The notes under the pieces: model-generated | Databases searched by the model: none | Told to the model about the DNA's origin: nothing | Seen by the model: only the letters and a program-made list of their open reading frames with translations | Source of the DNA: an uncultured Christensenellaceae bacterium | Lineage (GTDB): Bacteria; Bacillota; Clostridia; Christensenellales; SZUA-584 | Assembly (NCBI GenBank): GCA_964441275.1 | Contig: CAYTUG010000010.1 | Coordinates: 6,684 to 70,683 of the forward strand | Length of the DNA stretch: 64,000 bases | Direction: 5' to 3' | Translations under genes and position numbers: made by a program | Shown: in pieces, positions 5,961 to 62,770 of the stretch | Layout: each line of letters opens with the position of its first letter | Position numbering within the stretch: the stretch's first letter is position 1

Positions 5961-6193
5961 TATATTAACCCCTATTTAATTATTATTGAGTCTCAAAGTG
6001 GTTTTAGAGAACATTGGCTGCGACTGAAATCTGTTAACAAACTGCTGGTGATTAGCGTATTTTTATATTGGTGCGTATTCCGTATAGAGTGACAAGACGG
6101 CGGCAACCAATATAAATTAAGAAATAGCGTTTTACAAACTGTTAAATTTATTTTTACATGACAACAAACATTTGTCAACAATAATATTGTGTT

Positions 6194-8092
6194 TTAATCC
6201 AATTTAACGTAAGAGGAGCTGATATACGCGGCAGCTCCGCCGTAGTTGATTTTATGCCAACCCGATGCCGCATTTTTTTGGGTAACCTGTATACGCGCGC
6301 CGTCGGGTAATGCGCCAATAATATTTGAATCGCTCGATGAGCTTGCGCTGCTTCTGATATTAACCAGCCTTGAGCCGTACACTGCAGCGTTGGTAGGGAC
6401 ATAGGGCGCGCCATTGATAATATTCCTAAGATTAAGTATATGAAGCCGGACCATTGTGTAATCGGTAATGTCAATTACCCCGTCTTGATTGACGTCTGCC
6501 TTGGCAAGATCGTCTCCTTTTAACATTTTCAACTCAAGAATATGAAGCCGGATAGCTGTGTAATCGCTGATGTCAATTACCCCGTCGTTGTTTGCATCGC
6601 CGAGCATTATGTCGCTTTCGAAAAAGGGCGTCAGCTTCGGGGGAGCGATTGTAGGCTCATTAGCGATGTGCGTTCCCTCAAAATAGAACAGCAAGATATC
6701 TTCAAAGTTTTGCCCGCCGCCGCCTTTGTCCACCGATTTTGCCCGCTGTTGTGCGCCTCGTTGGCTCAGGCCGATTCCATGACCGTAACGCCTGCGGTAT
6801 AACCGAAATTCCGTATCGGTTTCTTCTGCTGTAAGTATGCGCAGATTAGTTGACGAGAAAACACAGTATTCTCCGCCCGCATTTTGCAGTTCGTGCATAT
6901 TAATATCGAAATTAACAGTGTCTGGCGCCGGCGTTTCGTTGCGGTTATCGAGAAACCTCATTGTAATATTAGCCATCTTAAAGTCGGGACATAAATTTTG
7001 GCCGCTGTAATCATTGCACACCCCGTGCTGCCCGTCATAAGTGTGCGTTGTAAAGCTGTCAAAACCAAGTATATCGATTTTATTCAAATCTTTTGCGGAG
7101 ATTTTGGGGAACGCTGAGGTTTTTAGCAATTTTTCAATTTTTGCGCGCCTATCCGCAGCATCGGCAGGCACTGTCATTTTGCCGTAATTGCCGCTTGAAT
7201 ATTGTATCTTAGCGTCTGCCGTAATTGTTTTGGGAAATACTATTAAGTTTTGCAGGCTTGACGGATTAATAATATCAAACTCGTCGTATTTAATTATGTG
7301 GTACGGCTTTAAAGGCGCGGTTGCAGTCCACGAATGTTGGGGAATATCAGTCCACCCGCCGTTGGATGCGGCATAATAACCCTCTACGTATTCAATTTTT
7401 GTGCTGCCCGATTTTTCGTATTCGCATTTTAAAACCATACCTTTGGTTTCATCAACAGCCATATTGGCATTTTTGTACGATGGGGTGTAGCCTTTGAATA
7501 CCTGATGAGACGATGTGTCGTTTATATCGTACAATGCGGACGCCGATGCGGTTGAAATTTTGTTTACCGCATATGTGCGCGCACATATTGCCTGCGCCTT
7601 CAACGCTTCCAGCGGAAAACTATCGGACATTTCGTGCGGCACCACGCCATAGAGATATTCTTCGGTATACAGGTGGTTGATAAGGACGATTTTATTGCTG
7701 TCACAGCGGATTTGAAAATCGCCAAGGTAAGCGCACCAGCCGTTGCGCGAATTGTTGTGCCAGATAAAATTGTTAAGGCCTTCGGTTGCAACGTGCCGGA
7801 CAAGCATAATGTTCGCCGCTGAAACTATTGCGGTTGTCTCTTTGGCTCGATATAGTGAAACCTTGGAATTTTTTATTTTTGCAGTGTATAAATCGCGCGC
7901 GAGGGGTATGCCGTTTATGCTGTAGTTGCCGTCAACATAAAACTTAATCTGGGTGCAGCCGGAAGGCACGGATAACAACACGCGGATTTTAGCAAAATCC
8001 TTGCTGCCCGCATACGAAGGCGAAGACGCTGCAAAAAATGCGGTAAAAACTATTAATATAGATAGCGAAAAAACGGCAATTCTTCTTTTCAC
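6194..8092 (-). CDS. SpoIID/LytB-domain peptidoglycan hydrolase with dockerin and C-terminal SH3b domains
   Basis: YLYGVVPHEM..EALKAQAICARTY and HGIGLSQRGA (SpoIID); duplicated DxNxDGVIDIxDY (dockerin); VNIRSSASS...WHKINYGG.AYISSSYV (SH3b). Confidence 0.88.
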   Translation of the reverse strand: MKRRIAVFSLSILIVFTAFFAASSPSYAGSKDFAKIRVLLSVPSGCTQIKFYVDGNYSINGIPLARDLYTAKIKNSKVSLYRAKETTAIVSAANIMLVRHVATEGLNNFIWHNNSRNGWCAYLGDFQIRCDSNKIVLINHLYTEEYLYGVVPHEMSDSFPLEALKAQAICARTYAVNKISTASASALYDINDTSSHQVFKGYTPSYKNANMAVDETKGMVLKCEYEKSGSTKIEYVEGYYAASNGGWTDIPQHSWTATAPLKPYHIIKYDEFDIINPSSLQNLIVFPKTITADAKIQYSSGNYGKMTVPADAADRRAKIEKLLKTSAFPKISAKDLNKIDILGFDSFTTHTYDGQHGVCNDYSGQNLCPDFKMANITMRFLDNRNETPAPDTVNFDINMHELQNAGGEYCVFSSTNLRILTAEETDTEFRLYRRRYGHGIGLSQRGAQQRAKSVDKGGGGQNFEDILLFYFEGTHIANEPTIAPPKLTPFFESDIMLGDANNDGVIDISDYTAIRLHILELKMLKGDDLAKADVNQDGVIDITDYTMVRLHILNLRNIINGAPYVPTNAAVYGSRLVNIRSSASSSSDSNIIGALPDGARIQVTQKNAASGWHKINYGGAAAYISSSYVKLD

Positions 8093-8351: not shown

Positions 8352-9374
8352 ATGAAAAACAAACTTACGGTTGCGGTTTTGGGTGCGGGGGCGATTGGAG
8401 GCATAACGGCGGCTTATTTAAAACGTGCAGGCTACGACGTAACGTTAGTGTGCAAGCACGAACAAAAAGCAGAGCAAATAAAAACTAAGGGTTTGCACAT
8501 TGTCGGAGTGCGCGGAGAGCATTACGTAAAAATGAATGCCGTAGCGAAAGCGGAACAGCTGTCCGGCAAAAAGGATTTGGTGCTTATCGTTACCAAGGCA
8601 TATGACATGCCGGACGCTGCAAACAGTATAATGGGCTTTCTAAAAGAAGACAGCCTTGTTGTTTCCATGCAAAATGGCATTTGTGTTGAAGCGCTTGCCG
8701 ATATTGTAGGGGATAACCGCGCGGTTGGGTGCGTTGTGGGCTGGGGCTCAACAATGCTTGAGGACGGTACGCTGAACATGACGTCCGAAGGCGATTTTGT
8801 TATAGGCGGATTTCTGCCAAACTTGGATGTCAGCGCGATAAAACAAGCATTAGACAACGTTGTGCCTGTGCGCATTTCAGATAACATTATAGCGGATCTT
8901 TATTCCAAAATGATAGTTAACGCTTGCATTACTTCCCTCGGCGTTTTGAGCGGGTTAAATCTTGGCAAAATACTAAAAAAAAGAGCGGCGCGCAATATTT
9001 TTATATCTATTATCCGCGAGGCTGTGCAGGTTGCTGATGCGATGGGGCTTAGAATAAAACCATTTGGGGGAAAGCTTGATTATTATAAACTAACCAGAGG
9101 AAGCGGCAGTCTTGCCGGTATTAAAAGGCATGCGCTGATAAGAATTATCGGCTTTAAATACAGGAGGTTAAAATCGTCAAGCCTGCAGGCGTTAGAACGC
9201 GGCAAGCCCACGGAAGTGGATTATTTCAACGGATACATTGCCGCTAAGGGCGAGCAATACGGAATTAGCACCCCCGTGAATGCCCGCATTGTGCAGATGA
9301 TTAAAGAGATAGAAAACAAAAAGCGCGCTATAGGCGTAAGCAATATATTTGACGGAGAACTTTTGCGTAGATAA
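8352..9374 (+). CDS. panE: 2-dehydropantoate 2-reductase (ketopantoate reductase family)
   Basis: GAGAIGG Rossmann motif, LIVTKAYD, SMQNG, SKMIVNA, SSLQALERGKPTEVDYFNG. Confidence 0.88.
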   Translation: MKNKLTVAVLGAGAIGGITAAYLKRAGYDVTLVCKHEQKAEQIKTKGLHIVGVRGEHYVKMNAVAKAEQLSGKKDLVLIVTKAYDMPDAANSIMGFLKEDSLVVSMQNGICVEALADIVGDNRAVGCVVGWGSTMLEDGTLNMTSEGDFVIGGFLPNLDVSAIKQALDNVVPVRISDNIIADLYSKMIVNACITSLGVLSGLNLGKILKKRAARNIFISIIREAVQVADAMGLRIKPFGGKLDYYKLTRGSGSLAGIKRHALIRIIGFKYRRLKSSSLQALERGKPTEVDYFNGYIAAKGEQYGISTPVNARIVQMIKEIENKKRAIGVSNIFDGELLRR

Positions 9375-9470: not shown

Positions 9471-9513
9471 TTGAGCGATTATGAGTGCGGCTTTATTTGA
9501 CAATAACCATAAT
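9471..9513 (+). promoter_or_regulatory. Putative activator-dependent late promoter of the phage structural operon
   Basis: Tandem TTGAGCG/ATGAGTG with 10-bp period (9471, 9481) and a CATAAT -10-like hexamer at 9508-9513; similar motif upstream of the holin. Confidence 0.4.
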
Positions 9514-9567
9514 AAATGAATGGGCGTAAAGAAACGCCTATTTTTGTTGTCGAAGGAGGAAATTATA

Positions 9568-9768
9568 ATGCTTATAAATATTGTAACCGCATCGGTTACG
9601 TTTGCCGGCACCTGCGCGCTTTGTATTGCGTGTTACTTAAAAGGAAAAAAAGCCGGCAAAAAAATTGCCGGCACAACAACAGCCGTACAAGAACAGCAAG
9701 AGCAAAACGCGTTGATGAAAAAATATGAGACCATAATAGGTTATGACCCTTACGGTGAAAACATATGA
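9568..9768 (+). CDS. Small membrane-anchored phage protein preceding the portal
   Basis: 66 aa from ATG 9568 behind GAAGGAGGA; N-terminal hydrophobic helix; stop overlaps the portal start. Confidence 0.7.
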   Translation: MLINIVTASVTFAGTCALCIACYLKGKKAGKKIAGTTTAVQEQQEQNALMKKYETIIGYDPYGENI

Positions 9769-11285
9769 GCATCACTTTGGCGTGGAAGGAATACGAGCAA
9801 GGGGTTGATTATAAAACGCGTATTGGCCTTTACCGTACCGTAGATTTAAACGAGCGTTTCTATGCCGGGGACCAGTGGGCGGGCATACCGCACGAGGGGT
9901 TGCCAACTCCCGTGGTAAATTTCATCCGATATGCTTCGGCATGGAAAATTGCCGCGGTAACCGACAGGCGCCTTTGTTTAAAATTTATGGCGGAGGGCGT
10001 CAACGATGGAAGCGATATTGGCGTGTACGCGAGGCAGATATCGGCTCACTGCGATCTTTTATGGGAACGGCTTAAAATGGACTATTTAACGAAAGAAGGG
10101 CTAAAACAGGCCGCGATAACCGGCGATTACGTGCAGTATTTTTATTGGGATTCATCGCTTGATACCGGTCAGGCGCTTTCCGGAGATATTGCAACCCAAC
10201 TTATTGACAACGTTAACTATTATCCGGGCAATCCTAACAGCGATGACGTGCAAAATCAACCTTATATAATTTTGTCATTTAGGGAACTGCTCTCAAAAAC
10301 ACGAAAGGAGGCGCGTGATAACGGGTGCGGCAGCTCAAACGAGATAACCGCAGATGAAAATAACGAATACGCCTCGGGAGATTGCGGAAAAATCGAGCTT
10401 GACGACAGCGGCAAATGCAATGTGCTGCTTAAGATGTACAAAAAAGACGGTAATGTGTGGTGTGAAAAATGCGTTAAAAACGCAATGGTGCAGCCGCCAA
10501 AAAACACTATGCTTACGAGATATCCAATTGCCGTTATGAACTGGGACACGCGGAAAAACTCATGCCACGGGGTGGCGGAAGTTACGGGGCTTATCCCCAA
10601 TCAGGTGTTTATTAACAAGATACTTGCGTTGTCGCAGCTTAACCAGATGCAGCTTAGCTTTCCTAAAGTGGTGTATGACCGCACGAGAATACGCGAGTGG
10701 AGCAACAAAGTTGCGGGGGCAATTGCGGTAAACGGGGATATAAGCGGAGCGGCGCAATATCTTTCCCCTCCCGGGATGTCGTATGACGCATGGAAGGGTT
10801 TAAACTCGACATTAGAAACCACTATGAGGATGATGGGCGCAAACGAAGTTACGCTTGGAAACATAAAAAACCCGGACAACACATCGGCTTTTATTGCGAC
10901 AAGGGATGCCGCTCTTGTGCCTTTGCAATCCCAGCAAGAGAGGTTTTATGCTTTCGTTGAAGATATCGGTTTGATATGGCTTGACTTTATTAAGCAGTAT
11001 TACCGGGCGGGGCGCATGATACCCGTTGAGCAAGACGGCGACCGGGTTTTCGTGCCGCTGCCCGATAACGTTTTGCAACAATATTCTATGCGGCTTAAAG
11101 TGGACGTTGGGCCTTCTTCTATGTGGAGCGAGGTTCAAGTTATAAAAACATTAGATAATCTCTTAAAGGGCGGACAGATAAGCTTGAGGCAATACCTTGA
11201 ACGCATGCCGGAGGGGTATATACCGCTTAAGGAAGAGTTAATAACGCAAATCAGCCAAAATGAACTACAGCCGGATGAAATGTAA
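9765..11285 (+). CDS. Phage portal protein (P22/podovirus-like)
   Basis: 506 aa; NERFYAGDQW, PVVNFI, TRYPIAVMNW..RKNSCHG, ANEVTLGN.....NTSAFIA, YLERMPEGYIP motifs typical of podophage portals; position before scaffold and capsid. Confidence 0.85.
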   Translation: MSITLAWKEYEQGVDYKTRIGLYRTVDLNERFYAGDQWAGIPHEGLPTPVVNFIRYASAWKIAAVTDRRLCLKFMAEGVNDGSDIGVYARQISAHCDLLWERLKMDYLTKEGLKQAAITGDYVQYFYWDSSLDTGQALSGDIATQLIDNVNYYPGNPNSDDVQNQPYIILSFRELLSKTRKEARDNGCGSSNEITADENNEYASGDCGKIELDDSGKCNVLLKMYKKDGNVWCEKCVKNAMVQPPKNTMLTRYPIAVMNWDTRKNSCHGVAEVTGLIPNQVFINKILALSQLNQMQLSFPKVVYDRTRIREWSNKVAGAIAVNGDISGAAQYLSPPGMSYDAWKGLNSTLETTMRMMGANEVTLGNIKNPDNTSAFIATRDAALVPLQSQQERFYAFVEDIGLIWLDFIKQYYRAGRMIPVEQDGDRVFVPLPDNVLQQYSMRLKVDVGPSSMWSEVQVIKTLDNLLKGGQISLRQYLERMPEGYIPLKEELITQISQNELQPDEM

Positions 11286-11381
11286 TTATATTTCGTTCAG
11301 TTATCAAAATAGTATAAACTCTAAATGCATTTTTCGCATAATATAAGACAGGGTTGCTGCCTTACCAAAATAGGAAAGTAG

Positions 11382-11786
11382 GTGACGCCCACGCAAGAAG
11401 ATACGTTGGAAAAAGAGCTCAAAGAAGCGTTTAAACGGCTTGAAACGGCAGACAAAGATTGCTCGCTGCTGATAAACAATGTGATTGAAAAAAATGCGGC
11501 CCGTCAAAACGGACGGATTGAGCAGCTGCATGAACAGTTAAGCAAATCGCGCGTTGCGATAGCTGAAACGGGCGGGCAAATTGTTGAGATAAAAGCCATT
11601 ATGCAAGGCGAATTAAAGCTTGTTTATGAAATGATCAACCGCCTGAATGAAAAGATAGAGCGCATAGAAGCTAACACCTCAAAAGAGCAAAACTCTAAGA
11701 TGATGTGGCGCATTGCGCTTATTGCCGCATTGCCGGGCGTAGTATCAATAGTAATAAAAATATTGGAGATCTTTTTAGCCGGTTAG
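11382..11786 (+). CDS. Coiled-coil protein with C-terminal TM helix (XhlA-like phage protein)
   Basis: Heptad-rich N-terminal ~110 aa followed by WRIALIAALPGVVSIVIKILEIFLAG. Confidence 0.55.
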   Translation: MTPTQEDTLEKELKEAFKRLETADKDCSLLINNVIEKNAARQNGRIEQLHEQLSKSRVAIAETGGQIVEIKAIMQGELKLVYEMINRLNEKIERIEANTSKEQNSKMMWRIALIAALPGVVSIVIKILEIFLAG

Positions 11787-11891
11787 AAGAGCCTGCTAAA
11801 CTATATTTGCGTTTAATCGGCAATTAATAAAATGCTTATCAAAGAAGGCTTTAAAGGCCTTTTTTGATACTTAAAAATAAGGAGATTAAAA

Positions 11892-12551
11892 ATGGAAAAC
11901 AATGCCCAACCACAGGCGCAAACGGCAAACCAGCCGGATATTCAAACCGATGTAGAAACCGGGTCAAACGATAAACAAGCGTTTTTAACGGTGCGCTACA
12001 ACAAAGAAGAGTTGCCTTTGTCCCGGGAGGCGGCAACGGAATATGCCCAAAAGGGTTTAAATTACGACAAAATAAGCGGCAGATTATCGCAATTGTCGCA
12101 AAAGGTTGAGGACTATCAGCATATTAACACTCTTGTCAGCGAAATTGCCCAGCAAAACGGAATAAGTGAAAACGACGCTTTCCTTGCACTGCGCCAGCGT
12201 GTGAGCGAAGAAGGCGCAGCACAGGCAAGTATAAACGCTCAGCTTGACGAGTTTATCGCCGCCCATCCGGATTACGATCCTTTGTCTTTGCCGGAAAGCG
12301 TAATAAACGAATGGAAAAGCGGCGTTCCGTTGTGTGATGCTTATGCCGCGTATGAAGAAATTAAAATCAGGCAGGTTAATGCACGGCAAACCAACGAGCA
12401 GAATGCCGCGGCAAGCATGGGGGGCGCGCAGGGAATAGGGGCTGCGGCGCCAAAGCCGCTTTCAAAAGAGGTTATTGCGCAGATGTCGCATTCCGAATTG
12501 GAAAACAACCATGGCAGGATATGGGCATTTTTAACGGGACAGAAAGAATAG
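11892..12551 (+). CDS. Phage capsid scaffolding protein
   Basis: Acidic helical protein, VRYNKEE...AQKGLNYDK motif, C-terminal MSHSELENN coat-binding-like end; directly upstream of the capsid gene. Confidence 0.75.
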   Translation: MENNAQPQAQTANQPDIQTDVETGSNDKQAFLTVRYNKEELPLSREAATEYAQKGLNYDKISGRLSQLSQKVEDYQHINTLVSEIAQQNGISENDAFLALRQRVSEEGAAQASINAQLDEFIAAHPDYDPLSLPESVINEWKSGVPLCDAYAAYEEIKIRQVNARQTNEQNAAASMGGAQGIGAAAPKPLSKEVIAQMSHSELENNHGRIWAFLTGQKE

Positions 12552-12566
12552 AAAGGAGAGATAGAT

Positions 12567-13406
12567 TTGCCTTACGAAAGTTTCAGGCCGGAAATTTTGG
12601 CCAAAGAGCTTATGACCGACAGGGGAAGAGATTGCGTTTTTAAAAACCTTTGCTACAAAGGTCCTATAATCGGCGAGATAGCGAAGAAGGGAGACGTTTT
12701 GCGAATAGCGGGCGTTGGACGCCCTACTGTGCGTGATTATATCCCCGGCAAAGACATAACGCTCGAGCAGAAAAAAAGCTATAACCAGGACCTGTATATA
12801 ACCGAGGCTAAGTATGTCAATGTTGAGGTGGACAGGGTAGATAAAGCGCAGGCGCAGGGAGAGGTGTTCGGGGTTGAAGTGCGGGAAGCAAAAAAGGCGC
12901 TTGCCCAAACGCTTGACGAACACCTTGCCGGGCTGCACAAACAGGCGGGCGGCGTGATAGAGAACAAAAGCTGCAATTCAGCCTCGATACTGTCTACTCT
13001 TGCGCAGGCCGAACAGGCTTTGCTTGAGATGGACGTGCCGTTTGAAGAAGAACGGTTTCTTGTAATATCGCCGGCAATTTATACAAAGCTTGTGCTTGGC
13101 AAGATAGTTTTTTTGCAGTCCAACGCCGAGGTTTTTGGCAAAGGATTTAAAGGAAGCTACTTAAATTTTGGGGTTTATGTGTCAAACTCTATCAAAAAGA
13201 CCGGTGAAGTGCACCATTGCATGGCATTTACCAGGCAGGCGATTGCGCTGGCGGAGCAAATACCGGCAAGCATGATAGAGCGTTATAAGCCCGAAAAAAC
13301 TTTTGCCGATGCCTTTAAAGTGTTGCATCTTTACGGAAGCACGGTTATAAGGCCGTCAGAGCTTATCCGCGTTGATTTAACAACGTCGGAAGAAACACAA
13401 ATATAG
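12567..13406 (+). CDS. Major capsid protein (P22 coat-like, HK97 fold)
   Basis: GEIAKKGDVLRIAGVGRPTVRDY, ITEAKYVNVEVDRVDKAQ, RFLVISP, FADAFKVLHLYGSTVIRP; TTG start behind GAAAGGAG. Confidence 0.85.
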   Translation: MPYESFRPEILAKELMTDRGRDCVFKNLCYKGPIIGEIAKKGDVLRIAGVGRPTVRDYIPGKDITLEQKKSYNQDLYITEAKYVNVEVDRVDKAQAQGEVFGVEVREAKKALAQTLDEHLAGLHKQAGGVIENKSCNSASILSTLAQAEQALLEMDVPFEEERFLVISPAIYTKLVLGKIVFLQSNAEVFGKGFKGSYLNFGVYVSNSIKKTGEVHHCMAFTRQAIALAEQIPASMIERYKPEKTFADAFKVLHLYGSTVIRPSELIRVDLTTSEETQI

Positions 13407-13418
13407 GGGGTGTTGTGT

Positions 13419-13793
13419 ATGGCTAATGTAAGCTTATTCGATATAAGCAAAGGCATGCCCGCCATTTTGCAAACCGAATCTATGACGCCGGCGGCAGCGG
13501 TACAGCAGGTGCCGTGCAAAAAAGATTCGAGGCTGTGCCTAAGGGTTTGCAATGCGAACGAGCAGGAGGACGTTGTGGTGCGGCTTAAAGCGGGCGGCGG
13601 GCCGCGGTGCGTGCTTGGAGATAAAGACATAACGGTAAAGGCGGGAGAGGTTGCGTACATTGCGCTTTGGGACACCGCGCGCTATAAAGATTTGGCAAGC
13701 GGAAACGTTAGCGTTGATTTGGTGGACGGCAACGGCGACGCTCTTAGCGAACAGTTGCTTTTACTGATTACAATAGAGGCGGCGCAGCTTTAA
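13419..13793 (+). CDS. Probable capsid decoration/cement protein
   Basis: 124-aa beta-rich protein immediately after the capsid gene; start moved to ATG 13419. Confidence 0.5.
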   Translation: MANVSLFDISKGMPAILQTESMTPAAAVQQVPCKKDSRLCLRVCNANEQEDVVVRLKAGGGPRCVLGDKDITVKAGEVAYIALWDTARYKDLASGNVSVDLVDGNGDALSEQLLLLITIEAAQL

Positions 13794-13805
13794 AGAAGCC
13801 GGACG

Positions 13806-13833
13806 GGGGGCATACCTGCCCCCTTAAATTTTT
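13806..13833 (+). terminator. Terminator-like hairpin after the capsid/decoration genes
   Basis: GGGGGCA-TACC-TGCCCCC stem followed by TTAAATTTTTT. Confidence 0.6.
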
Positions 13834-13853
13834 TAATTTTGGAGGTTGAGAAT

Positions 13854-14216
13854 ATGACTGCACAAGAAGCGTATGAGATGTCGCTTGCGCTTATCGACCA
13901 AGCCGAAGGCATTGATACTGCCGACTATGCATCAAGAGCGCCTGCTTTAATAGATGTGCTGCAGCGCGAACTTGCTTTTTATGAGGGAACAGCCGTCACA
14001 AGGCGGATAAAGAAACTTGAAGATATTTTGGAGATAGGGGAAGATACTGCAGAACGCATACTTCCCTATGGTTTGGCCGCAAACTTTGCGCTGTCCGATA
14101 AAAACGCGGATATGTATTCGGATTACAGTGCAATGTATCGCGCGCTTATTCGCACGATAAGGCCTGAAGATTCCGATATAACAGACGAGTACGGAGTTTT
14201 GGAGGGGCTTAAGTGA
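13854..14216 (+). CDS. Probable head-tail adaptor (P22 gp4 / tail tubular A-like)
   Basis: 120 aa helical, ILPYGLAANF motif, position between capsid and tail tube B; ATG 13854 behind GGAGG. Confidence 0.55.
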   Translation: MTAQEAYEMSLALIDQAEGIDTADYASRAPALIDVLQRELAFYEGTAVTRRIKKLEDILEIGEDTAERILPYGLAANFALSDKNADMYSDYSAMYRALIRTIRPEDSDITDEYGVLEGLK

Positions 14217-14267
14217 TAATCCGCCATTACCCGGGCGGGCAAACCCCAACGCAAGGAGCGAACTGCT

Positions 14268-16094
14268 ATGGAAAGAATAAAAGAGATTATGCTGCCCGAA
14301 TTAAACGGAGGGCTTAATGTTAACGATCCGGAGTATGCAATACTCGACAGCCAGAGCCACGATATGCTCAACATGTGGTACAGGGGAAAATCCTTAGTCA
14401 AGCGCAACGGTCAGGCTTTGATCGATTGCGGGATAGCGGGCGAGGTGCAAAGCATATCGCCGCTTTACTGCGATTACTATGTTGTGCATTCGAACGATAG
14501 GCTTTATAAATGGCGAGGAAATGAGGCGCAGCTGTTAAAGAGCGGCGTTGCAAGCGCCGAGGGCGTTTTTTGTGAGTTTTGCGGTACACTATATTATCTT
14601 GACGGAAATGAAATATGGGAAATCGCGCCTGATTTTAGCGTAAAGGAAGCGCGTCCTTACATACCTGTGGTAATTATAAACGCTCATCCCGACCTATCGG
14701 GCGGAGATGATAACGAGGCGTACAATATAATAGGTGCTGGATTTTGCGTAAAATACAATGGCGATGAAACATCGGCAGTGTATTCGCTGCCGCAAAAAGA
14801 GATTGACGAGACCGCGGTTTTGGTAAGCATAGACGCAGCCGATTTGAATGAAGGCGAGCATTTTAGCGTGGATAGAACGCAGGGCATTGTGAATTTTGCC
14901 GAAGGGACAAGCCCGAACGGGCCGCCCGGCGCAGGCACTAATAATGTATGGATTAGCGCGTTTAAAACGGCGCCGGAAAACAAACGGAAAATTACGGGGT
15001 GCAAAATAGCTTTGCCTTTCGGCGGGGAGGCATCCGGCATATTCGGGGGCACCAGGGTTTTTGTAACGGGCAACCCAAAGCATGCAAGAACGTACTGGCA
15101 CAGTGACTTAGGGCATGGATTGGGGAGCGGTATGCGTTATTTTCCGGATACTTGCGAAGAACATTTAAACCAAAACAATCAGCCGATAACCGCGGCGGCA
15201 AAAATGGGGGGAGAGCTCGTATTATTTAAACAGAGTTCGATATTTGTGCTTGGGTACGTATTCGACGGAGTTGACGCGTTTTACCCGGTAAGGGAGTGCC
15301 ACAGCGCCATTGGTTGTGATATGCCGAAAAGTTTAGCATTGATTGACAACGCGCTTGTTTTTGCGAATTCGAGCAGCGGAGTGCACATGCTAACGTCTAC
15401 CGACAACAAATCTGAAAACGTGGTAAAGCCGTTATCGGCAAATATAAATAAACTGCTTCTTAGTGAACCCGGGCTGCGCGATGCGTGTTCTATCGATCAC
15501 GGCAGGTACTATTGGTTATGTGCAGGAGGGCGGGCGTATCTTTGGGATTATGAGCAGACACCGTTTTATGACTTTGCAGATTACAAAAAAGCTCAACGCA
15601 GGCTTGCGTGGTATAGGTTTGATAACATAGACGCAAATGTTTTATGCGCCGATGCCGATACGCTTTATTACGGCGGCAAAAAGGGCATAGTATTATTCTG
15701 CAAAAATAAAAGCGACTTTGGCAGAAAATATGACGCTTATTTTACAACTAAGGCGTTTGATTTGATGTGTCCAAACAGATTAAAAACATTTCTAAAAGTA
15801 TATCCGAGTTTTGCGGCGCAGGGTAACATAAAAGCAACCGTTACCATATCAAGCGAAACCCATGATGTGTTTTCGAAACGAGTATTTGATATAAAGTCGT
15901 TTTCGTGGCTCGATTTTAACTGGAGCACATTTACGTTTGACGTTATAAAATTTTCAAGAACTTATGTTGTGCGTTTATCTATGCGGCGCGCCGCCTACAT
16001 ACAAATAAAGGTATCGGGAAGCGATAAAGACAGAGACGTGGGGATATCGGCGCTTAGGATAGAATACTGCTTTAACAACAAATTAAGGAGGTAA
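14268..16094 (+). CDS. Tail tubular protein B / DNA-stabilisation-like (P22 gp10 / T7 gp12-type beta-propeller)
   Basis: 608 aa; LNGGLNVND...MLNMW start, repeated beta-blade character, TRVFVTGNP, YFPD, VRECHSAIGCD motifs. Confidence 0.7.
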   Translation: MERIKEIMLPELNGGLNVNDPEYAILDSQSHDMLNMWYRGKSLVKRNGQALIDCGIAGEVQSISPLYCDYYVVHSNDRLYKWRGNEAQLLKSGVASAEGVFCEFCGTLYYLDGNEIWEIAPDFSVKEARPYIPVVIINAHPDLSGGDDNEAYNIIGAGFCVKYNGDETSAVYSLPQKEIDETAVLVSIDAADLNEGEHFSVDRTQGIVNFAEGTSPNGPPGAGTNNVWISAFKTAPENKRKITGCKIALPFGGEASGIFGGTRVFVTGNPKHARTYWHSDLGHGLGSGMRYFPDTCEEHLNQNNQPITAAAKMGGELVLFKQSSIFVLGYVFDGVDAFYPVRECHSAIGCDMPKSLALIDNALVFANSSSGVHMLTSTDNKSENVVKPLSANINKLLLSEPGLRDACSIDHGRYYWLCAGGRAYLWDYEQTPFYDFADYKKAQRRLAWYRFDNIDANVLCADADTLYYGGKKGIVLFCKNKSDFGRKYDAYFTTKAFDLMCPNRLKTFLKVYPSFAAQGNIKATVTISSETHDVFSKRVFDIKSFSWLDFNWSTFTFDVIKFSRTYVVRLSMRRAAYIQIKVSGSDKDRDVGISALRIEYCFNNKLRR

Positions 16095-16097
16095 GAT

Positions 16098-17030
16098 ATG
16101 GCGTTTGACAGGATGGCTTTTGAACCGCCGGAAGGTTTGCGCAATTCGGAATATTATCCGACTGCGCCCGAAAGCGAAGCTGATGCGCGCGAACAAGTGC
16201 AAGGGGTTTCCGACCAGATTAAAGAATTCTTAAACGAAACATTGCTGCCGCAGGTTGAGAATGCGGCCGCAGGCTGCTCGGGTGCGCAAAAAATAGGCAG
16301 CGAGGAGATACAAGGGGTTGACGGGACAAATGTTTTTGCGCAGATTGTCAGCCTTAAAACGCAGATAGACGATGTTTCGGCAGGCAGCGTCAGCGATGGT
16401 TCTATCACTACCCAAAAGATTGCGGAAGCTGCGGTTACCAAAGCAAAGGTTGCAAACAATGCGATTGGGGAGGCGCAATTAGCCCCAAGCGCCGTCACTC
16501 AAGAAAAGATTTGTAACGGAGCGGTCAGCGGAACGAAGATAGCCGAAAGCGCGGTTGCAGGCAACCATATAATGCCGGCGGCGGTATCGGGTGCGCATAT
16601 TGCCGACGGGGCGATCGGCAATACAAAGATAGCGGCGGGCGCGGTTAGCGCAACGAAGATTGCGGACGGGTGCGTTACCAAGTCCAAACTTTCACAAGCT
16701 GCGCTTGGATGGTCATTGGTGTTGGAAGAAGGGTTGAATTCGGGAAACGGAAGCATAGACATGCCGAGCCAGGCGGGCAAATCCGAAATGATGATACAGC
16801 TAAAAAGCGCGGACGGGATAGTGGCGTATGGCGAATCTGTTGCGCCCCTGAACGCGGAAGGGCGCACCATACCATATATGCACAACATAAGCACTTTCAA
16901 CCCCGGCAATTTCTCAGTGGATTACAGAACGATAACGGTGGGGGCTGTACAGATAAGCTACACATCTTCAAGAGCGGAAACAGTAGGAGGCTCAACCAAT
17001 CTTAAGCGGATAAGCGTTTTTACAAGATAG
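16098..17030 (+). CDS. Tail fibre/spike-like protein with decapeptide repeats
   Basis: Last gene of the module; ten 10-aa repeats of GAV(T/S)xxKIAx type; distinct beta-rich C-terminal domain. Confidence 0.65.
   Translation: MAFDRMAFEPPEGLRNSEYYPTAPESEADAREQVQGVSDQIKEFLNETLLPQVENAAAGCSGAQKIGSEEIQGVDGTNVFAQIVSLKTQIDDVSAGSVSDGSITTQKIAEAAVTKAKVANNAIGEAQLAPSAVTQEKICNGAVSGTKIAESAVAGNHIMPAAVSGAHIADGAIGNTKIAAGAVSATKIADGCVTKSKLSQAALGWSLVLEEGLNSGNGSIDMPSQAGKSEMMIQLKSADGIVAYGESVAPLNAEGRTIPYMHNISTFNPGNFSVDYRTITVGAVQISYTSSRAETVGGSTNLKRISVFTR
16398..16697 (+). repeat. Ten tandem 30-nt / 10-aa repeats inside the tail fibre gene
   Basis: aa 101-200: GSITTQKIAE AAVTKAKVAN NAIGEAQLAP SAVTQEKICN GAVSGTKIAE SAVAGNHIMP AAVSGAHIAD GAIGNTKIAA GAVSATKIAD GCVTKSKLSQ. 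Confidence 0.9.
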
Positions 17031-56847: not shown

Positions 56848-56901
56848 AAAATGAGCGGCATTGAGCGAACCTGTGATGTAACCTTTTTTTGCGGGGATAA
56901 T
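56848..56901 (+). promoter_or_regulatory. Putative activator-dependent late promoter of the holin operon
   Basis: ATGAGCG/TTGAGCG with 10-bp period (56851, 56861) and GATAAT at 56896-56901. Confidence 0.4.
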
Positions 56902-56926
56902 GCATCCTTGCGGAAAGGAGGCTTTT

Positions 56927-57319
56927 ATGGATTGGACACAGGTTGTGACAGCTGTTGTAGGGCTGATGTTTACCGGGGTGTTGTTGCCGCTTATAAACGC
57001 TTTATTCGTGTGGCTGAAAAACAAAACGAGCAATGACCAAATGTTCGCGGCGCTTTGCGAGGCTCAAACAGTTGCGGATGATGTTGTGGCAAGCCTTTCG
57101 GCCACCGTGGTCAGCTCTCTTAAAAAAGCAAGCGGCAACGGAAAGTTAACGGCCGATGATGCAAAAAAAGTGGCCGCATTAGCGGCGGAGCAATTTATTA
57201 GCGATTTGTCCGAGCGGTCGCTTGAGCTGCTGAAAAACAGGACGGATGATTTTGCATCGTATGTTGCCCGGTTGATTGAGGCGCGGCTGGTTGTGCTTAA
57301 AGGAGGGGGAAAGGCGTGA
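56927..57319 (+). CDS. Phage holin-like protein (LL-H type)
   Basis: 130 aa from ATG 56927 behind GAAAGGAGG; N-terminal TM, then LKKASGNGKLTADDAK...LIEARL soluble part typical of LL-H holins. Confidence 0.7.
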   Translation: MDWTQVVTAVVGLMFTGVLLPLINALFVWLKNKTSNDQMFAALCEAQTVADDVVASLSATVVSSLKKASGNGKLTADDAKKVAALAAEQFISDLSERSLELLKNRTDDFASYVARLIEARLVVLKGGGKA

Positions 57320-57936
57320 ATGCGGCGGACAGCATTAAAAGCTATTTTGACAACCTTGAGCAAGCACAAAAAGCTTCGATTATAGCGCAGTTTGAACAGG
57401 CCTACGCAGAGCTGCAAAAAAAGTATGAAAACGTGCCGGCGCAATATCAGTATCTCAAAAATGAAGCGTATGTAAATAACGCGCTAATCGAAAAGGCCCG
57501 CCGTGAAAACATGGCAAACATGGGGTTAGGCGGTACCGGAGGAGCTTCTCAAACTTTGGAGCAACGTAACACGGGGCGGCTTTTAAGAGAGATTGGAGAC
57601 ATTTCAAGACAGCAACAGGATTACAGCGATAACGTTAACATGGCTTTGTACAATCTGAAAACAAAGCACAAAGCCGACTTAACGGAAGTAGAATCTAAAA
57701 CGGCGTCCGAGCGTATAGCCGCTTTAACCGAACAGGCGCGTTTTGAAGCGCAATTCGAGCAAGCGCGGCAAAAAAACTTGTTTGACCAGGCTTACAGCCT
57801 TTACAAGAAAAAACTAATAACCGCAGCGCAATTTACAGAGATGACAGGCATAGCTTTGAAAAAGAGCGGTTCAAAAAAGAATAAAAACCCCGTGCAAAAG
57901 AGCACGCCGTATATTGATAATTATTATATGGTTTAG
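57316..57936 (+). CDS. Phage virion-associated (internal/ejection-like) helical protein
   Basis: Q/A-rich helical protein with AYVNN...RENMANMGLGGTGGASQT motif recalled from Clostridial podophage late proteins; coupled to the holin gene. Confidence 0.5.
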   Translation: MNAADSIKSYFDNLEQAQKASIIAQFEQAYAELQKKYENVPAQYQYLKNEAYVNNALIEKARRENMANMGLGGTGGASQTLEQRNTGRLLREIGDISRQQQDYSDNVNMALYNLKTKHKADLTEVESKTASERIAALTEQARFEAQFEQARQKNLFDQAYSLYKKKLITAAQFTEMTGIALKKSGSKKNKNPVQKSTPYIDNYYMV

Positions 57937-57942
57937 TGTAAC

Positions 57943-57963
57943 AGGGGCGAGATGAACCGCCCC
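57943..57963 (+). terminator. Hairpin after the holin operon
   Basis: GGGGCG-AGATGAAC-CGCCCC stem. Confidence 0.55.
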
Positions 57964-58280
57964 GTTAACAAAAACGGTGTGAAAAAGCAGCATTAACACC
58001 GCCGACGTTTTACAAGCGGCTAAACCTTGTAATAGTCCAATGTTAGAACCTGCGGAATGCGGCAGCAAATCTAACATCTTGCAAGCCAGCTTTTTGGGTT
58101 TTCCGAATCAGCAAAAGTAAAACAAAAATTAGCGCTTATATATCAAGTATATTATGCGGTTATCGAATCTAATAATTTAATAACACAATCAAAGGGTTAA
58201 TTGGAGCCGCTAATATGCTTAGCAAACAAAAACTGATTACAAAAAATCGCAGAGTAATTTAGTGCGAGCCGCCTAAACAG

Positions 58281-58685
58281 CTATTTTTTTTGGTCGGCGT
58301 TTGCTTGCTTATCGTCTTTCATTGCCTGGGCGAGCTTAATGGCAAGCCGAAGTTCTTCACCGCTTACGTTGCGCTCTGCAAGCTCTTCCAACATTTCTAA
58401 CGTAATTCCGCGGCTTGACAGCGCGGGCGATAGAGTGGGCTGATTCAGGGTTTTATAACGGTGCTGCTGCGCAATTCCAAGAAGGTAATCGGCTGAGCAT
58501 ACCAAAGCGTCGCAAAGCTTTTCAAGAACCTCTATTGACGGGCGCTTGCGCCCACTCTCTATCTCCGCAAGAAAAGCCTGGGTGATACCAATGCGCGCGG
58601 AAAGCTGAGACTGCGTTAAACCGAGCTGCTGCCGCTGATGCTTTAATTTTTTGGGGAGGCTGTCCAAATTAGTTACTTCCTTCAT
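58281..58685 (-). CDS. XRE-family CI-like repressor
   Basis: LKHQRQQLGLTQSQLSARIGITQAFLAEIESGRKRPSIEVL HTH; start probably ATG 58685 or TTG 58667, not 58862. Confidence 0.88.
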   Translation of the reverse strand: MKEVTNLDSLPKKLKHQRQQLGLTQSQLSARIGITQAFLAEIESGRKRPSIEVLEKLCDALVCSADYLLGIAQQHRYKTLNQPTLSPALSSRGITLEMLEELAERNVSGEELRLAIKLAQAMKDDKQANADQKK

Positions 58686-58710
58686 ATAATAATTTAAGGC
58701 ACACAAATGG

Positions 58711-58784
58711 ATTATAGCCATAAGCGATAGATTTGTAAAGTATAGCTTTAAGCTATTGACAACTTGTTTGATTTTGGATAGGGT
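58711..58784. promoter_or_regulatory. Divergent promoter pair with two 15-bp operators (lambda-like switch)
   Basis: Leftward TTTACA-17-TATAAT (58739..58711); rightward TTGACA-17-TAGGGT (58756..58784); operators ATAGCcataAGCgAT (58714-58728) and ATAGCtttaAGCTAT (58742-58756). Confidence 0.75.
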
Positions 58785-58808
58785 GAAAGAGAATACGGAG
58801 GTGAGATC

Positions 58809-59045
58809 ATGAGAGTGGCGTTGGCTTTGATACGTGAGGGCGCGAATATTTCGCAGGTGCAAATTTCTAAAAGAGCAGGAATATCTCAGGGCTATTATTC
58901 AGACATTGAATGCGGCGTCAGACGCCCTTCGCCCGATGTTGCGGTGCGCATTGCGCGGGCGCTCGACATCCCCGAATGTGAAATATTCAGCATATTTTAC
59001 AATGAGAATCAAAGCAGAAAAGGACATGCAACACGGTTATCATAA
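58809..59045 (+). CDS. Cro-like XRE HTH protein
   Basis: 78 aa, ISQVQISKRAGISQGYYSDIECGVRRPSPDVA; GGAGGTG RBS; divergent from the CI-like gene. Confidence 0.88.
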   Translation: MRVALALIREGANISQVQISKRAGISQGYYSDIECGVRRPSPDVAVRIARALDIPECEIFSIFYNENQSRKGHATRLS

Positions 59046-59180
59046 TTTATCACTTTAAAAGAGTATCATGACTTTGTGACATATCGCAGCGTAAAGTTGC
59101 GCATTTGGGTTTCTGATGGGCAATTTTCTCCTGTTTTCAAATGCGGTTAGACGCCGTAATATTAGTTGCGAGGTTAATCT

Positions 59181-59651
59181 ATGAGAGAAATAGAAATATT
59201 TTTAAAGGATTATTGGTATGCTACACGCAGCATAGGCAGGTTGATGCTTGATTTATCGGCCGCGCGGCACGCTTATGAACAAAGCCGCCAATATATACCG
59301 TCTACAGGCGGGCTGATAAAAACAAATAGATCGCGCTATGCGCATGACAGCGCGGTTGAGAAGGCGGTAATACTTGCGGTGGATCAATTCCGTGCTGAAG
59401 TTGAAAGCATTGAGCGCAGGCTAAACTACGAAAGGCGCACCATTGAAATTATTGAACAGACGGTTGCCAACGCGGGACTGTCCGCACCTGAAGCCGCATA
59501 CATAAGATTGCGTTACTTCGAGGGAAAAAGTGTAGAAGCTTCTGCGCAGCGTTTGTTTTGCTCGGTAGCAACAGCCGGAAGAATAAGAGTTTGCGCGCTT
59601 GATAAAATAGAGAATGCGGTGGGGAAGGAGAATATTGCAAAAGCGCTGTGA
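59181..59651 (+). CDS. RinA/ArpU-family phage late transcriptional activator
   Basis: 156 aa; N-terminal coiled coil, C-terminal sigma4-like HTH IRLRYFEGKSVEASAQRLFCSVATAGRIR. Confidence 0.75.
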   Translation: MREIEIFLKDYWYATRSIGRLMLDLSAARHAYEQSRQYIPSTGGLIKTNRSRYAHDSAVEKAVILAVDQFRAEVESIERRLNYERRTIEIIEQTVANAGLSAPEAAYIRLRYFEGKSVEASAQRLFCSVATAGRIRVCALDKIENAVGKENIAKAL

Positions 59652-59919: not shown

Positions 59920-60045
59920 ATGTGTGGCGGATACTCCTGCGGTCGCAGCCAAATGCGAAGCAGTTACCGCAGCCGTAGTTGCTTATGCAACTGTTTGTGC
60001 GGTTGCTTGGGCTGCTGCTTTTGCCGTGGCAGGCGTTGTTGGTAG
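59920..60045 (+). CDS. 41-aa Cys-rich peptide (below the ORF-track length cutoff)
   Basis: MCGGYSCGRSQMRSSYRSRSCLCNCLCGCLGCCFCRGRRCW*; AGGGGGGTGA RBS. Confidence 0.6.
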   Translation: MCGGYSCGRSQMRSSYRSRSCLCNCLCGCLGCCFCRGRRCW

Positions 60046-60129
60046 AATATAATTCAGACGGCTCGCCACTACAGGCGGGCCATACATGCAGCATGGGCCG
60101 CCCTCCTTATTCTGCGATATATTTTGACA

Positions 60130-61757: not shown

Positions 61758-61879
61758 GCTACACCTACATTCACACAGACTATATACATAGCGCATATAG
61801 CGTCATCAACAATATATTAAAAAAGATTGTGTTTGTCAATAGTTTTTTTAATCGGCTTATAAGTTGTCAAATGATAAGT

Positions 61880-62420
61880 TCACCGGACTATTTATACACG
61901 ATATCACTTACAGAGCTGTATGATATAGCATATAAACCCAAGATGAAGATTGTCGATAATCTTATTTGCTTGGGAGTGTATCTGTTTGCGGGAGCACCAG
62001 AGGCGGGTAAATACTTTTATGGCTCAACTCGGGTACCATGTAAGCAGAGATGTTCCCCTGTGGGAGCATACGGTTTATAAAGGTACAGTATCTTGCTTTG
62101 GAGGGCGATTACGGAAGGCTACAAAAGCGTTTACCCCGTATATTTAGTATGGATGGTATTGACAACTTTCACTTTGCTACTCATGCCAAAAACCTGCGGG
62201 AAGGTCTGGACGGACAGTTAAAAAAGTTTATGCGGGAGCATCCCGATACCAAACTGATTATCATTGGTACCCTTCAAAGAATTCGTTAGGTGGGCGGCGA
62301 GAAATATAGTTACGCCAGCGATTATGAAATCGTAACACGACTCAAGCAAACTGCAGATCAGTATAACATATGCATCCTGATAGTCCATCATACACGGAAG
62401 CAAGACATTTCTCGAGATAG
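61880..62420 (+). pseudogene. Disrupted AAA_25/RepA-like helicase of a Clostridial integrative element
   Basis: Pieces in three frames (TISLTELYD..GVYLFAGAPEAGK / MAQLGYHVS..LW..KGTV / YLALEGDY..LIIIGTLQRIR*VGGEKYSYASDYE..LIVHHTRKQ): two frameshifts and a TAG at 62287. Confidence 0.8.
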
Positions 62421-62440
62421 ATAAACTGGGCCGGAAAAAG

Positions 62441-62770
62441 ATGTTCGGAAGAGTAGAATTAATCGAGCAGAATTACAAGGAGATGATATCCTTTGCAAAG
62501 GAAGGAATTCTTCCCCGGAATAAGATAACCGATTTGATACGGCAGTTACGCGAAAGTTCATCGGGGTTATTTAGTTCGCAGAGCAGCTGGGAACAGCTTT
62601 ACGAACAGACTATTGACTTTCATCAGACAATGAAGTTAGCACCGCAACACATAAAGGAAGTCTTTGCTGGGATATTCTTAAAGGATAGTGAAGAACGCGC
62701 AGCGCGGACGATGATCTTTGACGATTTTTATTGGAATTGCAAATTAAGCAGTATACAAAAGCGGGTGTAA
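62441..62770 (+). CDS. Hypothetical protein or fragment within the mobile-element remnant
   Basis: 109-aa ORF from the track; no recognised motif. Confidence 0.3.
   Translation: MFGRVELIEQNYKEMISFAKEGILPRNKITDLIRQLRESSSGLFSSQSSWEQLYEQTIDFHQTMKLAPQHIKEVFAGIFLKDSEERAARTMIFDDFYWNCKLSSIQKRV

Follow-up and report, generated by a model that had tools for sequence, protein, structure and literature searches.

The stretch of DNA analysed here (hereafter the window) comprises 64,000 nucleotides of contig CAYTUG010000010.1 (positions 6,684 to 70,683 of the forward strand; assembly GCA_964441275.1) from an uncultured Christensenellaceae bacterium. At 56927-59651 it carries a small set of phage-like genes, namely a holin-like gene, a gene for a protein of 206 aa, two divergent genes for XRE-type regulators that resemble the CI repressor and the Cro protein of temperate phages, and the gene for a regulator of 156 aa. 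In a preliminary description, made from the sequence alone, these genes were read as a minimal regulatory cascade, i.e. a CI/Cro switch wired directly to a late activator of the RinA/ArpU type, which was thought to control both the adjacent holin operon (56927-57936) and a distant cluster of structural genes (9568-17030). The five open reading frames (ORFs), the divergent arrangement of the XRE pair and the gap of 135 bp between the stop codon of the Cro-like gene and the start of the 156-aa gene (59046-59180) all proved to lie where that description had placed them. The genes and control elements of the region are the following:

56927-57319, plus strand: holin-like protein, 130 aa, with a single transmembrane segment at the N terminus and matches to PHROG holin families
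57316-57936, plus strand: protein of 206 aa, predicted to be all-helical, function unassigned, translationally coupled to the holin gene
58281-58685, minus strand: CI-like XRE repressor of 134 aa (ATG 58685) or 128 aa (TTG 58667), HTH_3 8e-17
58711-58784: switch region, comprising O1, O2 and both promoters
58713-58729: operator O1, TATAGCCATAAGCGATA, overlapping the -10 element of the minus promoter
58739-58734 and 58716-58711, minus strand: leftward promoter, TTTACA / TATAAT, 17-nt spacer, 11/12 match
58741-58757: operator O2, TATAGCTTTAAGCTATT, overlapping the -35 element of the plus promoter
58756-58761 and 58779-58784, plus strand: rightward promoter, TTGACA / TAGGGT, 17-nt spacer, read from the sequence
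58809-59045, plus strand: Cro-like XRE protein of 78 aa, HTH_3 2e-14
59046-59180, plus strand: deletion remnant between the Cro-like gene and the regulator gene, identified by alignment and tblastn
59181-59651, plus strand: Ltr-superfamily regulator of 156 aa, 17.7 kDa, pI 9.1, with a helix hairpin and a helix-turn-helix (HTH) domain of the sigma region 4 type

The two phage-derived operons of the window share a rare promoter signature that nothing else in the window carries. The DNA upstream of 13 orthologous holin genes cannot be aligned apart from one block, which reads TGAGCG-N4-TGAG(A/C/G)G, 11 nt, TA(G/A)CCT and a hairpin that abuts the Shine-Dalgarno sequence. The exact core of the signature (TGAGCG-N4-TGAG) occurs at two sites on the two strands of the 64-kb window, compared to an expected number of 0.07, and two sites were reached in 0 of 100 shuffled sequences. 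Both sites lie on the coding strand just upstream of the two phage-derived operons: the distance is 75 nt from the site at 56852 to the holin ATG and 96 nt from the site at 9472 to the opening gene of the portal/capsid/tail operon. A search with an nhmmer profile of 23 such promoters recovered no further site in the window. The features concerned are:

9472-9504, plus strand: putative late promoter of the head-tail operon, with TGAGCG (9472-9477), TGAGTG (9482-9487), an 11-nt spacer and a -10-like GACAAT (9499-9504)
9518-9548, plus strand: leader hairpin with U-tract, resembling an intrinsic terminator (dG -15.9 kcal/mol, z -3.3)
9568-17030, plus strand: head-tail cluster (PHROG portal 3e-23, major head 2e-34, tail fibre 6e-22), encoding in order a 66-aa membrane ORF, a P22-type portal (9765-11285), an XhlA-like protein of 134 aa, a putative scaffold of 219 aa, the major capsid protein (12567-13406), proteins of 124 aa and 120 aa, a virion protein of 608 aa and a tail fibre of 310 aa
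56852-56884, plus strand: putative late promoter of the holin operon, with TGAGCG (56852-56857), TGAGCG (56862-56867), an 11-nt spacer and a -10-like TAACCT (56879-56884)
56884-56918, plus strand: holin leader hairpin, the 3' arm of which pairs with part of the Shine-Dalgarno sequence GGAAAGG (z -3.2)

The promoter of the holin operon is kept upstream of 13/13 distinct orthologous holin genes, and the architecture of the head-tail promoter is also found before the portal operons of L008, L039, L045 and L048 (L numbers denote the loci and contigs used for comparison). A relaxed 12-base motif, TGAGNG-N4-TGAGNG, was scanned in the loci fetched to that point (roughly 0.7 Mb) and occurs only upstream of holin orthologues, of the portal operons of L008, L045 and L048, of terminase genes and an internal structural module in L008 and of the operon of the regulator itself in L035. 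A looser pattern, which leaves the first base of each repeat open, additionally finds the sites of L039 (portal and internal) and the solitary terL of L051/L052, which lies among housekeeping genes, besides four off-target matches; a motif-like match in L026 (18313) was judged spurious because it lies inside a GerA gene. At all these sites the distance from the second repeat to the -10-like hexamer (TAnnnT or nAnAAT) is exactly 11 nt, and by this -10 assignment the repeats span about -39 to -24, i.e. the place of the -35 element, of which the putative late promoters have no usable copy. The geometry is also unchanged in L041, L043 and L044, where the repeats read TGAAAT-N4-TGAAAG, and in L035 a triple TGAGCG repeat is located directly before the small-ORF/sig operon, that is the regulator's own. 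Since the XRE proteins have palindromic operators of their own and the Ltr superfamily binds direct repeats, the obvious candidate for reading the repeats is the 156-aa protein, and its action at the TGAGCG-repeat promoters is what the sequences would predict. In line with this, L035 has the repeats at the operon of its regulator, and the recognition helix ATAGRIR is common to the window and L035; L037, with its GGAGTT repeats, has STAALIR. The proposal that the activator controls both 9568-17030 and 56927-57936 thus stands as far as the common signature of the two operons is concerned, the binding itself being the predicted part.

In the case of the 156-aa protein, a profile search had been named in the preliminary description as the check on the RinA/ArpU assignment. 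The search did not recover the RinA and ArpU models themselves, and the link to their superfamily emerged via a broadened profile. The protein is basic and small (17.7 kDa, pI 9.14), has no match in Pfam and is matched over its full length by the PHROG family phrog_36 'transcriptional regulator' (4e-11). A structure model made with AlphaFold2 (AF2) from the family alignment (predicted local distance difference test score, pLDDT, 87) consists of two helices (2-37 and 58-97) that form a hairpin, a disordered linker and a three-helix HTH domain (102-155). The HTH domain superposes on region 4 of sigma-E, SigD and SigF with template-modelling (TM) scores of 0.7-0.8 and a root-mean-square deviation of 1.3-2.1 A (Foldseek, PDB), and the sequence profile matches region 4 of SigB, SigF and FliA at 5e-6. 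Foldseek retrieved no full-length match from the PDB, only sigma region 4; among predicted viral structures the whole protein matches phage proteins of 135-165 aa (E down to 3e-5, TM up to 0.76), which are named DUF1492, Sigma-70 region 4 (Sigma70_r4) or transcriptional activator. Full-length profile relatives (n=71) match RinA in 20 cases (best 3e-8, sub-threshold or weak), ArpU weakly in 5 and the superfamily model of the sigma-70 factors, including those of extracytoplasmic function (ECF), in 50, and the broadened profile aligns with RinA of phage 80-alpha over 122 columns (hhalign, probability 96%, E 3.5e-9). The possibility of a complete sigma factor (including ECF) was rejected, since region 4 alone is recognisable and the score with TIGR02937 is below the cut-off; a sigma region 2 cannot be recognised, the N-terminal part being the two-helix hairpin. 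The family is small, with 129 cluster representatives at E<=1e-3 among 1.84 billion proteins. All 36 close homologues come from Christensenellales-like metagenome-assembled genomes, and tblastn yielded no match in 50,697 phage genomes.

The Ltr superfamily comprises RinA, ArpU, LtrA/Sigma70_r4, LtrB/DUF1492 and LtrC, the late regulators of the temperate phages of Firmicutes (Quiles-Puchalt 2013, PMC3753634). Its members are small (about 130-140 aa, about 15 kDa), basic activators whose genes immediately precede terS and whose binding sites are direct repeats ahead of the late promoter (PMC3753634, PMC13123087); they have an N-terminal helical domain and a conserved C-terminal DNA-binding domain of the sigma-region-4 type (PMC3753634). 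The slot directly before terS and the late operon is not occupied by the window gene but is occupied by a relative with 46% identity on the viral contig L037 (IMG/VR). The order there is helicase and early genes, regulator, repeats, a 69-aa membrane ORF, a terS-like HTH gene, terL, an SPP1-type portal and a Mu-F protein, with the repeats (GGAGTT-TTTT-GGAGTT) placed right after the stop codon of the regulator. Because of its fold, the transitive profile evidence and the genomic position of the L037 relative, the 156-aa protein can be assigned to the Ltr superfamily, in which it forms a new family and is neither a RinA/ArpU protein in the strict sense nor a complete sigma factor. The original naming therefore holds at the level of the superfamily and fails at the level of TIGR01636 and TIGR01637. 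With the described Ltr proteins the 156-aa protein has in common the small basic make-up, the sigma-region-4-like C-terminal domain and putative direct-repeat targets before late promoters that control packaging, morphogenesis and lysis genes, and its L037 relative occupies the canonical slot before terS. In contrast to these proteins, it constitutes a separate sequence family, is chromosomal and vertically inherited, has no terS downstream and would serve several unlinked promoters instead of one; moreover its repeats lie at about -39 to -24 (by the -10 assignment), whereas the Ltr repeats lie further upstream.

As had been proposed, the two XRE genes make up a true divergent switch; the operators that they share are conserved. 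The HTH domains of the repressor and the Cro-like protein are paralogous, with 39% identity to each other, and the intergenic region of 123 bp holds two 17-bp palindromes, O1 and O2 (consensus TATAGC-N5-GCKATA), of which no other copy is present anywhere in the window. The operators and the promoter hexamers hardly vary among about 20 species, although the XRE proteins of these species are only 40-77% identical. A third operator is located just past the rightward -10 element in most species and has been lost in the clade of the window. The features of a CI/Cro-type switch that are present thus include the divergent HTH repressor genes, the common intergenic control region and the multiple related operators over both promoters; the feature that is absent is the self-cleaving S24 (LexA-like) C-terminal domain for SOS induction. 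The CI-like repressor has no Peptidase_S24 match; it consists of an HTH domain and a C-terminal domain and has a full-length CapH-like match (8e-13). A reading of the locus as a defence system was dropped, because the PADLOC matches of the XRE proteins were no more than generic (HTH or CapH-like) and the other proteins had none. There is no LexA box in the window. GAAC-N4-GTTC boxes (Gram-positive LexA, Cheo) are found at the rightward promoter in two distant lineages, L027 and L035, which suggests that the same regulator has been put under SOS control by different routes. The boxes lie at about 8300-8690 in L027 and at 9512-9523 in L035, and the XRE pair of L035 is missing altogether. The start of the repressor is ambiguous between ATG 58685 and TTG 58667, the latter having the better Shine-Dalgarno sequence. 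Public gene calls begin the gene at ATG 58721 (146 aa), inside O1 and the -10 element of its own promoter; the orthologues and the position of the Shine-Dalgarno sequence favour 58685 or TTG 58667 over 58721.

The order XRE(-)/XRE(+)/156-aa gene recurs in nearly all of the 27 independent genome loci in which the contig extends to the upstream flank, and is thus hardly a matter of chance. Closer relatives carry the module at an equivalent position, downstream of the gene for a uridine-kinase-like protein of 541 aa, and the order in relatives is holin gene, 206-aa gene, a variable insert, XRE(-), XRE(+), small ORFs and the regulator. The direct wiring over 135 bp, on which the preliminary description had laid weight, is a lineage-specific deletion: in 22/22 relatives with sequence at this position a 68-aa zinc-ribbon ORF lies between the Cro-like gene and the regulator, in many of them together with a 60-aa ORF, and the alignment reveals that the window has lost the 60-aa ORF and most of the zinc-ribbon ORF, of which 3'-end remnants are left. 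In most relatives a 74-aa ORF and a DUF6054 gene follow the regulator; these are lacking in the window, as is a DUF975 gene seen in relatives. The latter encodes a membrane protein and lies beside the repressor gene in L001 (8174-8788) and L003 (7970-8581); a DUF975 gene is also found about 5 kb upstream of the portal cluster of L039 (2214-2906).

The amino-acid identities of the module proteins track those of the flanking housekeeping genes. The ratio dN/dS, determined by the method of Nei and Gojobori (NG86) with dS being saturated, is 0.08 for the regulator (156 aa), 0.09-0.17 for the XRE proteins, 0.125 for the holin-like protein, 0.04 for the 206-aa protein and 0.04 for the capsid, compared to 0.04-0.05 for the flanking housekeeping genes; the least-conserved head-tail proteins reach about 0.3. 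The module is under purifying selection, like the neighbouring housekeeping genes. Genes for replication, recombination, an integrase or a terminase were found neither in nor near 56927-59651, in agreement with the earlier remark that no replication or recombination genes separate the switch from the activator, and the 64-kb window contains no tRNA or att-like features. The remainder of the window is ordinary chromosome, with GerA and spore-germination GerAC domains, SpoIID, arginine biosynthesis, an L10 leader, ClpB, DnaJ and two-component systems, and the homologues carry the names Christensenellales or Christensenellaceae; the window is part of the chromosome of a spore-forming Christensenellales bacterium.

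The head-tail cluster is likewise flanked by housekeeping genes. Its portal recurs with 73-89% identity on chromosomal contigs (up to 3.8 Mb) of other species and its capsid is 89-91% identical between species; the best capsid match in sequenced phages is 33% identical. Close relatives of the regulator or the capsid are absent from the 50,697 phage genomes, and an IMG/VR scan for the portal found no relative. A search with two TerL queries (tblastn) yielded nothing in the window. Elsewhere the position of the terminase varies: it adjoins the portal in the distant L009 and L047, lies 5 kb off in L008 and is a solitary chromosomal gene with the same promoter type in L051, and in several genomes portal and terminase are on the same contigs. 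Dispersed loci with a varying terminase position are the pattern of a multi-locus element resembling a gene transfer agent (GTA). Of the characteristics by which a GTA is recognised, those of gene content and inheritance are found here as well, i.e. phage-like structural genes that are chromosomally fixed, vertically inherited and under purifying selection, without genes for replication or integration; the packaging of random host DNA into particles would be a prediction.

We read 58281-59651 as the control module of an anciently domesticated, dispersed, podovirus-like element of the GTA type, and not of a living prophage, and we put the probability of this reading at roughly 60%. Building on the observed gene content, operators, common promoter signature, conservation and selection, we infer the binding partners, the course of events and the kind of particle as follows. 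The minus-strand XRE protein would bind O1 and O2 and thereby shut the rightward promoter and autoregulate its own. Upon some signal, for which the LexA boxes in two distant lineages suggest the SOS response, the rightward promoter would fire, and its transcript would yield two proteins, namely the Cro-like XRE protein, by which the repressor promoter would be shut, and the Ltr-type protein of 156 aa. The latter, probably a dimer, would bind the two 6-bp direct repeats (TGAGCG-N4-TGAGnG) one helical turn apart and, at promoters that have no -35 element, would stand in for sigma region 4 or recruit it. As a result both operons of the window (head-tail, 9568-17030; holin, 56927-57936) would be switched on, together with the terminase gene at another place in the genome. 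The interpretation given in the preliminary description, being right in its main thrust, is partly supported, the promoter code and the conservation being independent in-silico evidence for it.

Several observations weigh against this reading. The 156-aa protein matches neither RinA (TIGR01636) nor ArpU (TIGR01637) at E<=0.01, it reaches 22.9 bits with the sigma70-ECF superfamily model TIGR02937 (cut-off 42.9), and the narrow family profile gives no significant alignment with RinA of 80-alpha (hhalign, 2.8%). A terminase gene is lacking in the window and, in the nearest relatives (L039, L045), also in the 8 kb that precede the portal, so that DNA packaging in this lineage would be a prediction. 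The 3.09-Mb contig L008 has four motif sites, yet it does not figure among the contigs on which close homologues of the regulator were found. Simple activation does not explain the terminator-like hairpin that separates the late promoter from the head-tail genes. Finally, the lineage of the window no longer has the third operator, the zinc-ribbon ORF or DUF6054 downstream of the regulator, which could be a sign of decay.

Such decay would be general if the loci were inert leftovers of one or more dead prophages and their common elements functionless relics. The lack of an integrase, of replication genes and of a terminase in the window, the deletion of the small ORFs and the third operator in this lineage and the presence of a frameshifted AAA_25-like gene nearby (61829-62770) would all fit, yet we consider this highly improbable, as every reading frame is intact, dN/dS (0.04-0.17, with dS saturated) is like that of the flanking housekeeping genes, the operators and promoters are conserved where other intergenic DNA cannot be aligned between species, and the capsid is about 90% identical between species. 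A different doubt concerns the protein that reads the late promoters. The TGAGCG promoters could be real but read by another factor, either a host regulator or sigma factor or a small co-encoded protein like the 68-aa zinc-ribbon protein, in which case the 156-aa protein would regulate, for instance, the downstream 74-aa ORF and DUF6054. These two genes do follow the regulator in most relatives, no close regulator homologue was seen on the L008 contig with its four motif sites, and the binding of the repeats by the 156-aa protein is a step that we infer. Nevertheless both promoters have been kept in the window despite the loss of the zinc-ribbon ORF, the 74-aa ORF and DUF6054, direct repeats are a documented type of Ltr target (PMC3753634), the repeats of L035 stand at the regulator's own operon and the XRE proteins have their own, different, palindromic operators, so that another reader appears unlikely to us.

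The hairpin in the head-tail leader bears on yet another mode of action. It sits between the late promoter and the ribosome-binding site of the first gene, and every portal-type leader examined has a hairpin followed by T5-7 between the -10 element and the ribosome-binding site, with stems that are lineage-specific. More terminator-like hairpins are found on the coding strand of the head-tail cluster, at about 11845-11868 (read from the sequence) and at 13805-13824, and one late promoter alone serves the whole 7.5-kb cluster in the window. At the conserved leaders Rfam recognised no known RNA family. The portal-type leader and the internal hairpins suggest attenuation or antitermination. In the case of phage lambda (Q, pR' and tR') the site of the regulator lies within the late promoter and a terminator lies shortly past the start site. 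The likeness consists of this very arrangement; the 156-aa protein, however, is not known to be related to Q in either sequence or fold, the window promoter in addition has no -35 element, and antitermination is here a hypothesis only. If the 156-aa protein were mainly or additionally a Q-like antiterminator, it would be loaded at the promoter via the repeats and let RNA polymerase pass the leader terminator as well as the hairpins inside the cluster, which would give a role to the U-tract hairpins of all portal-type leaders and to those further along the cluster with its single promoter. Promoters without a -35 element need activation anyway, however, and the terminase-type and holin-type promoters have no leader terminator: terminase-type leaders have neither a terminator-like nor a Shine-Dalgarno-pairing hairpin, and in the holin-type leaders the hairpin is retained among orthologues with different stems. 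Furthermore the Ltr proteins have been described as activators (PMC3753634), none being known to antiterminate, and the sole Q-family match is that of one relative (E 0.006). We consider antitermination by this protein decidedly unlikely.

The GTA-type reading can be extended, tentatively and at rather less than an even chance, to the clade as a whole. The module and the TGAGCG-repeat promoters would then be the master regulator and the 'late promoter code' of a clade-wide, vertically inherited, podovirus-like GTA of Christensenellales, the terminase, head-tail and lysis genes of which would be scattered and tied only by the regulon, and the conserved leader terminators would point to an additional role of the Ltr-type protein or a partner in antitermination. 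If true, this would be the first regulatory circuit for GTA-like elements of anaerobic Clostridia and would add a new activity to the Ltr superfamily.

Among known systems, PBSX of Bacillus subtilis would seem to be the closest regulatory analogue of the module. As McDonnell et al. reportedly described in 1994, an Xre repressor is combined in PBSX with a positive factor, Xpf, that drives the late operon, the product being a defective, DNA-packaging, phage-like particle. Both are domesticated phage-derived particle systems of a Firmicute, in which an XRE-type repressor is located upstream of a small sigma-like late activator. PBSX, however, is a contiguous myovirus-like block with several early genes between xre and xpf, whereas the early region of the window and its relatives consists of the Cro-like gene, 0-2 tiny ORFs and the activator, and the structural genes are podovirus-like and dispersed. 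Xpf has been termed 'sigma-like' (PMC4243946). In terms of gene content a second comparison is with FpGTA of Faecalibacterium, which has been demonstrated to be a podovirus-like two-locus GTA (Nat Commun 2026, PMC12946183). The FpGTA cluster comprises a small ORF, TerL, portal, scaffold, capsid and hypothetical genes, and a distant second locus carries the lysis genes; the same study records GTA-like packaging in Christensenellaceae and describes no regulator or promoter for FpGTA (PMC12946183). Common to both are the podovirus-like capsid cluster, the separate lysis locus and the near-ubiquity in a clade of gut or anaerobe Clostridia, which is a likeness by gene content; the terminase is part of the FpGTA cluster whereas it is detached from the cluster in the clade of the window. 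RcGTA of Rhodobacter consists of scattered loci (head-tail, lysis, accessory) under a dedicated DNA-binding activator with sigma-like features, GafA. Scattered GTA loci under one dedicated activator with such features would thus be a common property, but the proteins and the host inputs are unrelated, RcGTA is not known to have a CI/Cro-type switch and its hosts are Alphaproteobacteria.

GTA-like DNA packaging has been newly reported as common in gut Clostridia including Christensenellaceae, and the FpGTA clusters, the only ones identified to date, come without a known regulator or promoter. Against this background the locus offers a compact candidate for a master switch (three proteins and two operators) and a short, highly specific promoter signature for finding the dispersed parts of such elements in any genome. 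At the same time it provides a natural example of the early region of a temperate phage that was pared to 'switch plus late activator' in the course of domestication.

Concerning the holin operon, the holin-like protein matches PHROG holin families at 8e-5 in the window copy and in 11/11 orthologues (best 2e-11). The 206-aa gene overlaps the stop codon of the holin gene and is kept beside it in 12 species. Its product had been called 'virion-like', which is not sustained by the searches: there is no match in Pfam, PHROG, NCBIfam or PDB, and the AF2 model from the single sequence is all-helical and unreliable (pLDDT 54). The C-terminal motif resembles XkdX. Neither did the terminator that had been ascribed to this operon hold, as the GC hairpin after 57936 (57940-57968) has no T-tract.

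Within the head-tail cluster, the 134-aa protein encoded between the portal and scaffold genes (11382-11786, plus strand) has a coiled coil, a C-terminal membrane anchor and a weak match to PHROG 'hemolysin' (1.6e-4), and may be an XhlA-like accessory protein of lysis whose gene lies within the head cluster. In the phage collection the capsid is best matched (33%) by MT836592.1, an unannotated 'Bacteriophage sp.' record from human faeces, the length of which (9.6 kb) is about the size of the DNA packaged by FpGTA-type particles. In L008 a structural sub-module is duplicated between terminase and portal (5728-8013 versus 12851-15563): a 489-aa gene corresponds to the 216-aa and 282-aa genes fused together (54-71% identity), a 387-aa gene has a paralogue, and a partial exact-core motif (TGAGCG-N4-TGAG) lies inside at 7880.

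Downstream of the 156-aa gene the window has 700 bp of non-coding DNA followed by permease genes. A small ORF with a strong ribosome-binding site can be read there at 59920-60052 (plus strand), in two overlapping frames that give 41 aa, very Cys-rich, or 42 aa, Ala/Val-rich. Further on, at 61829-62770 (plus strand), a run of short ORFs in shifting frames resembles a frameshifted gene for a RecA/DnaB-like ATPase, with 'IVHHTRKQ' in one fragment and a weak AAA_25 match (7.5e-4) at 62290-62424, and is probably a decayed mobile-element gene. In L035 a Cys/Gly-rich ORF of 92 aa (8873-9151) is found just upstream of the regulator operon.

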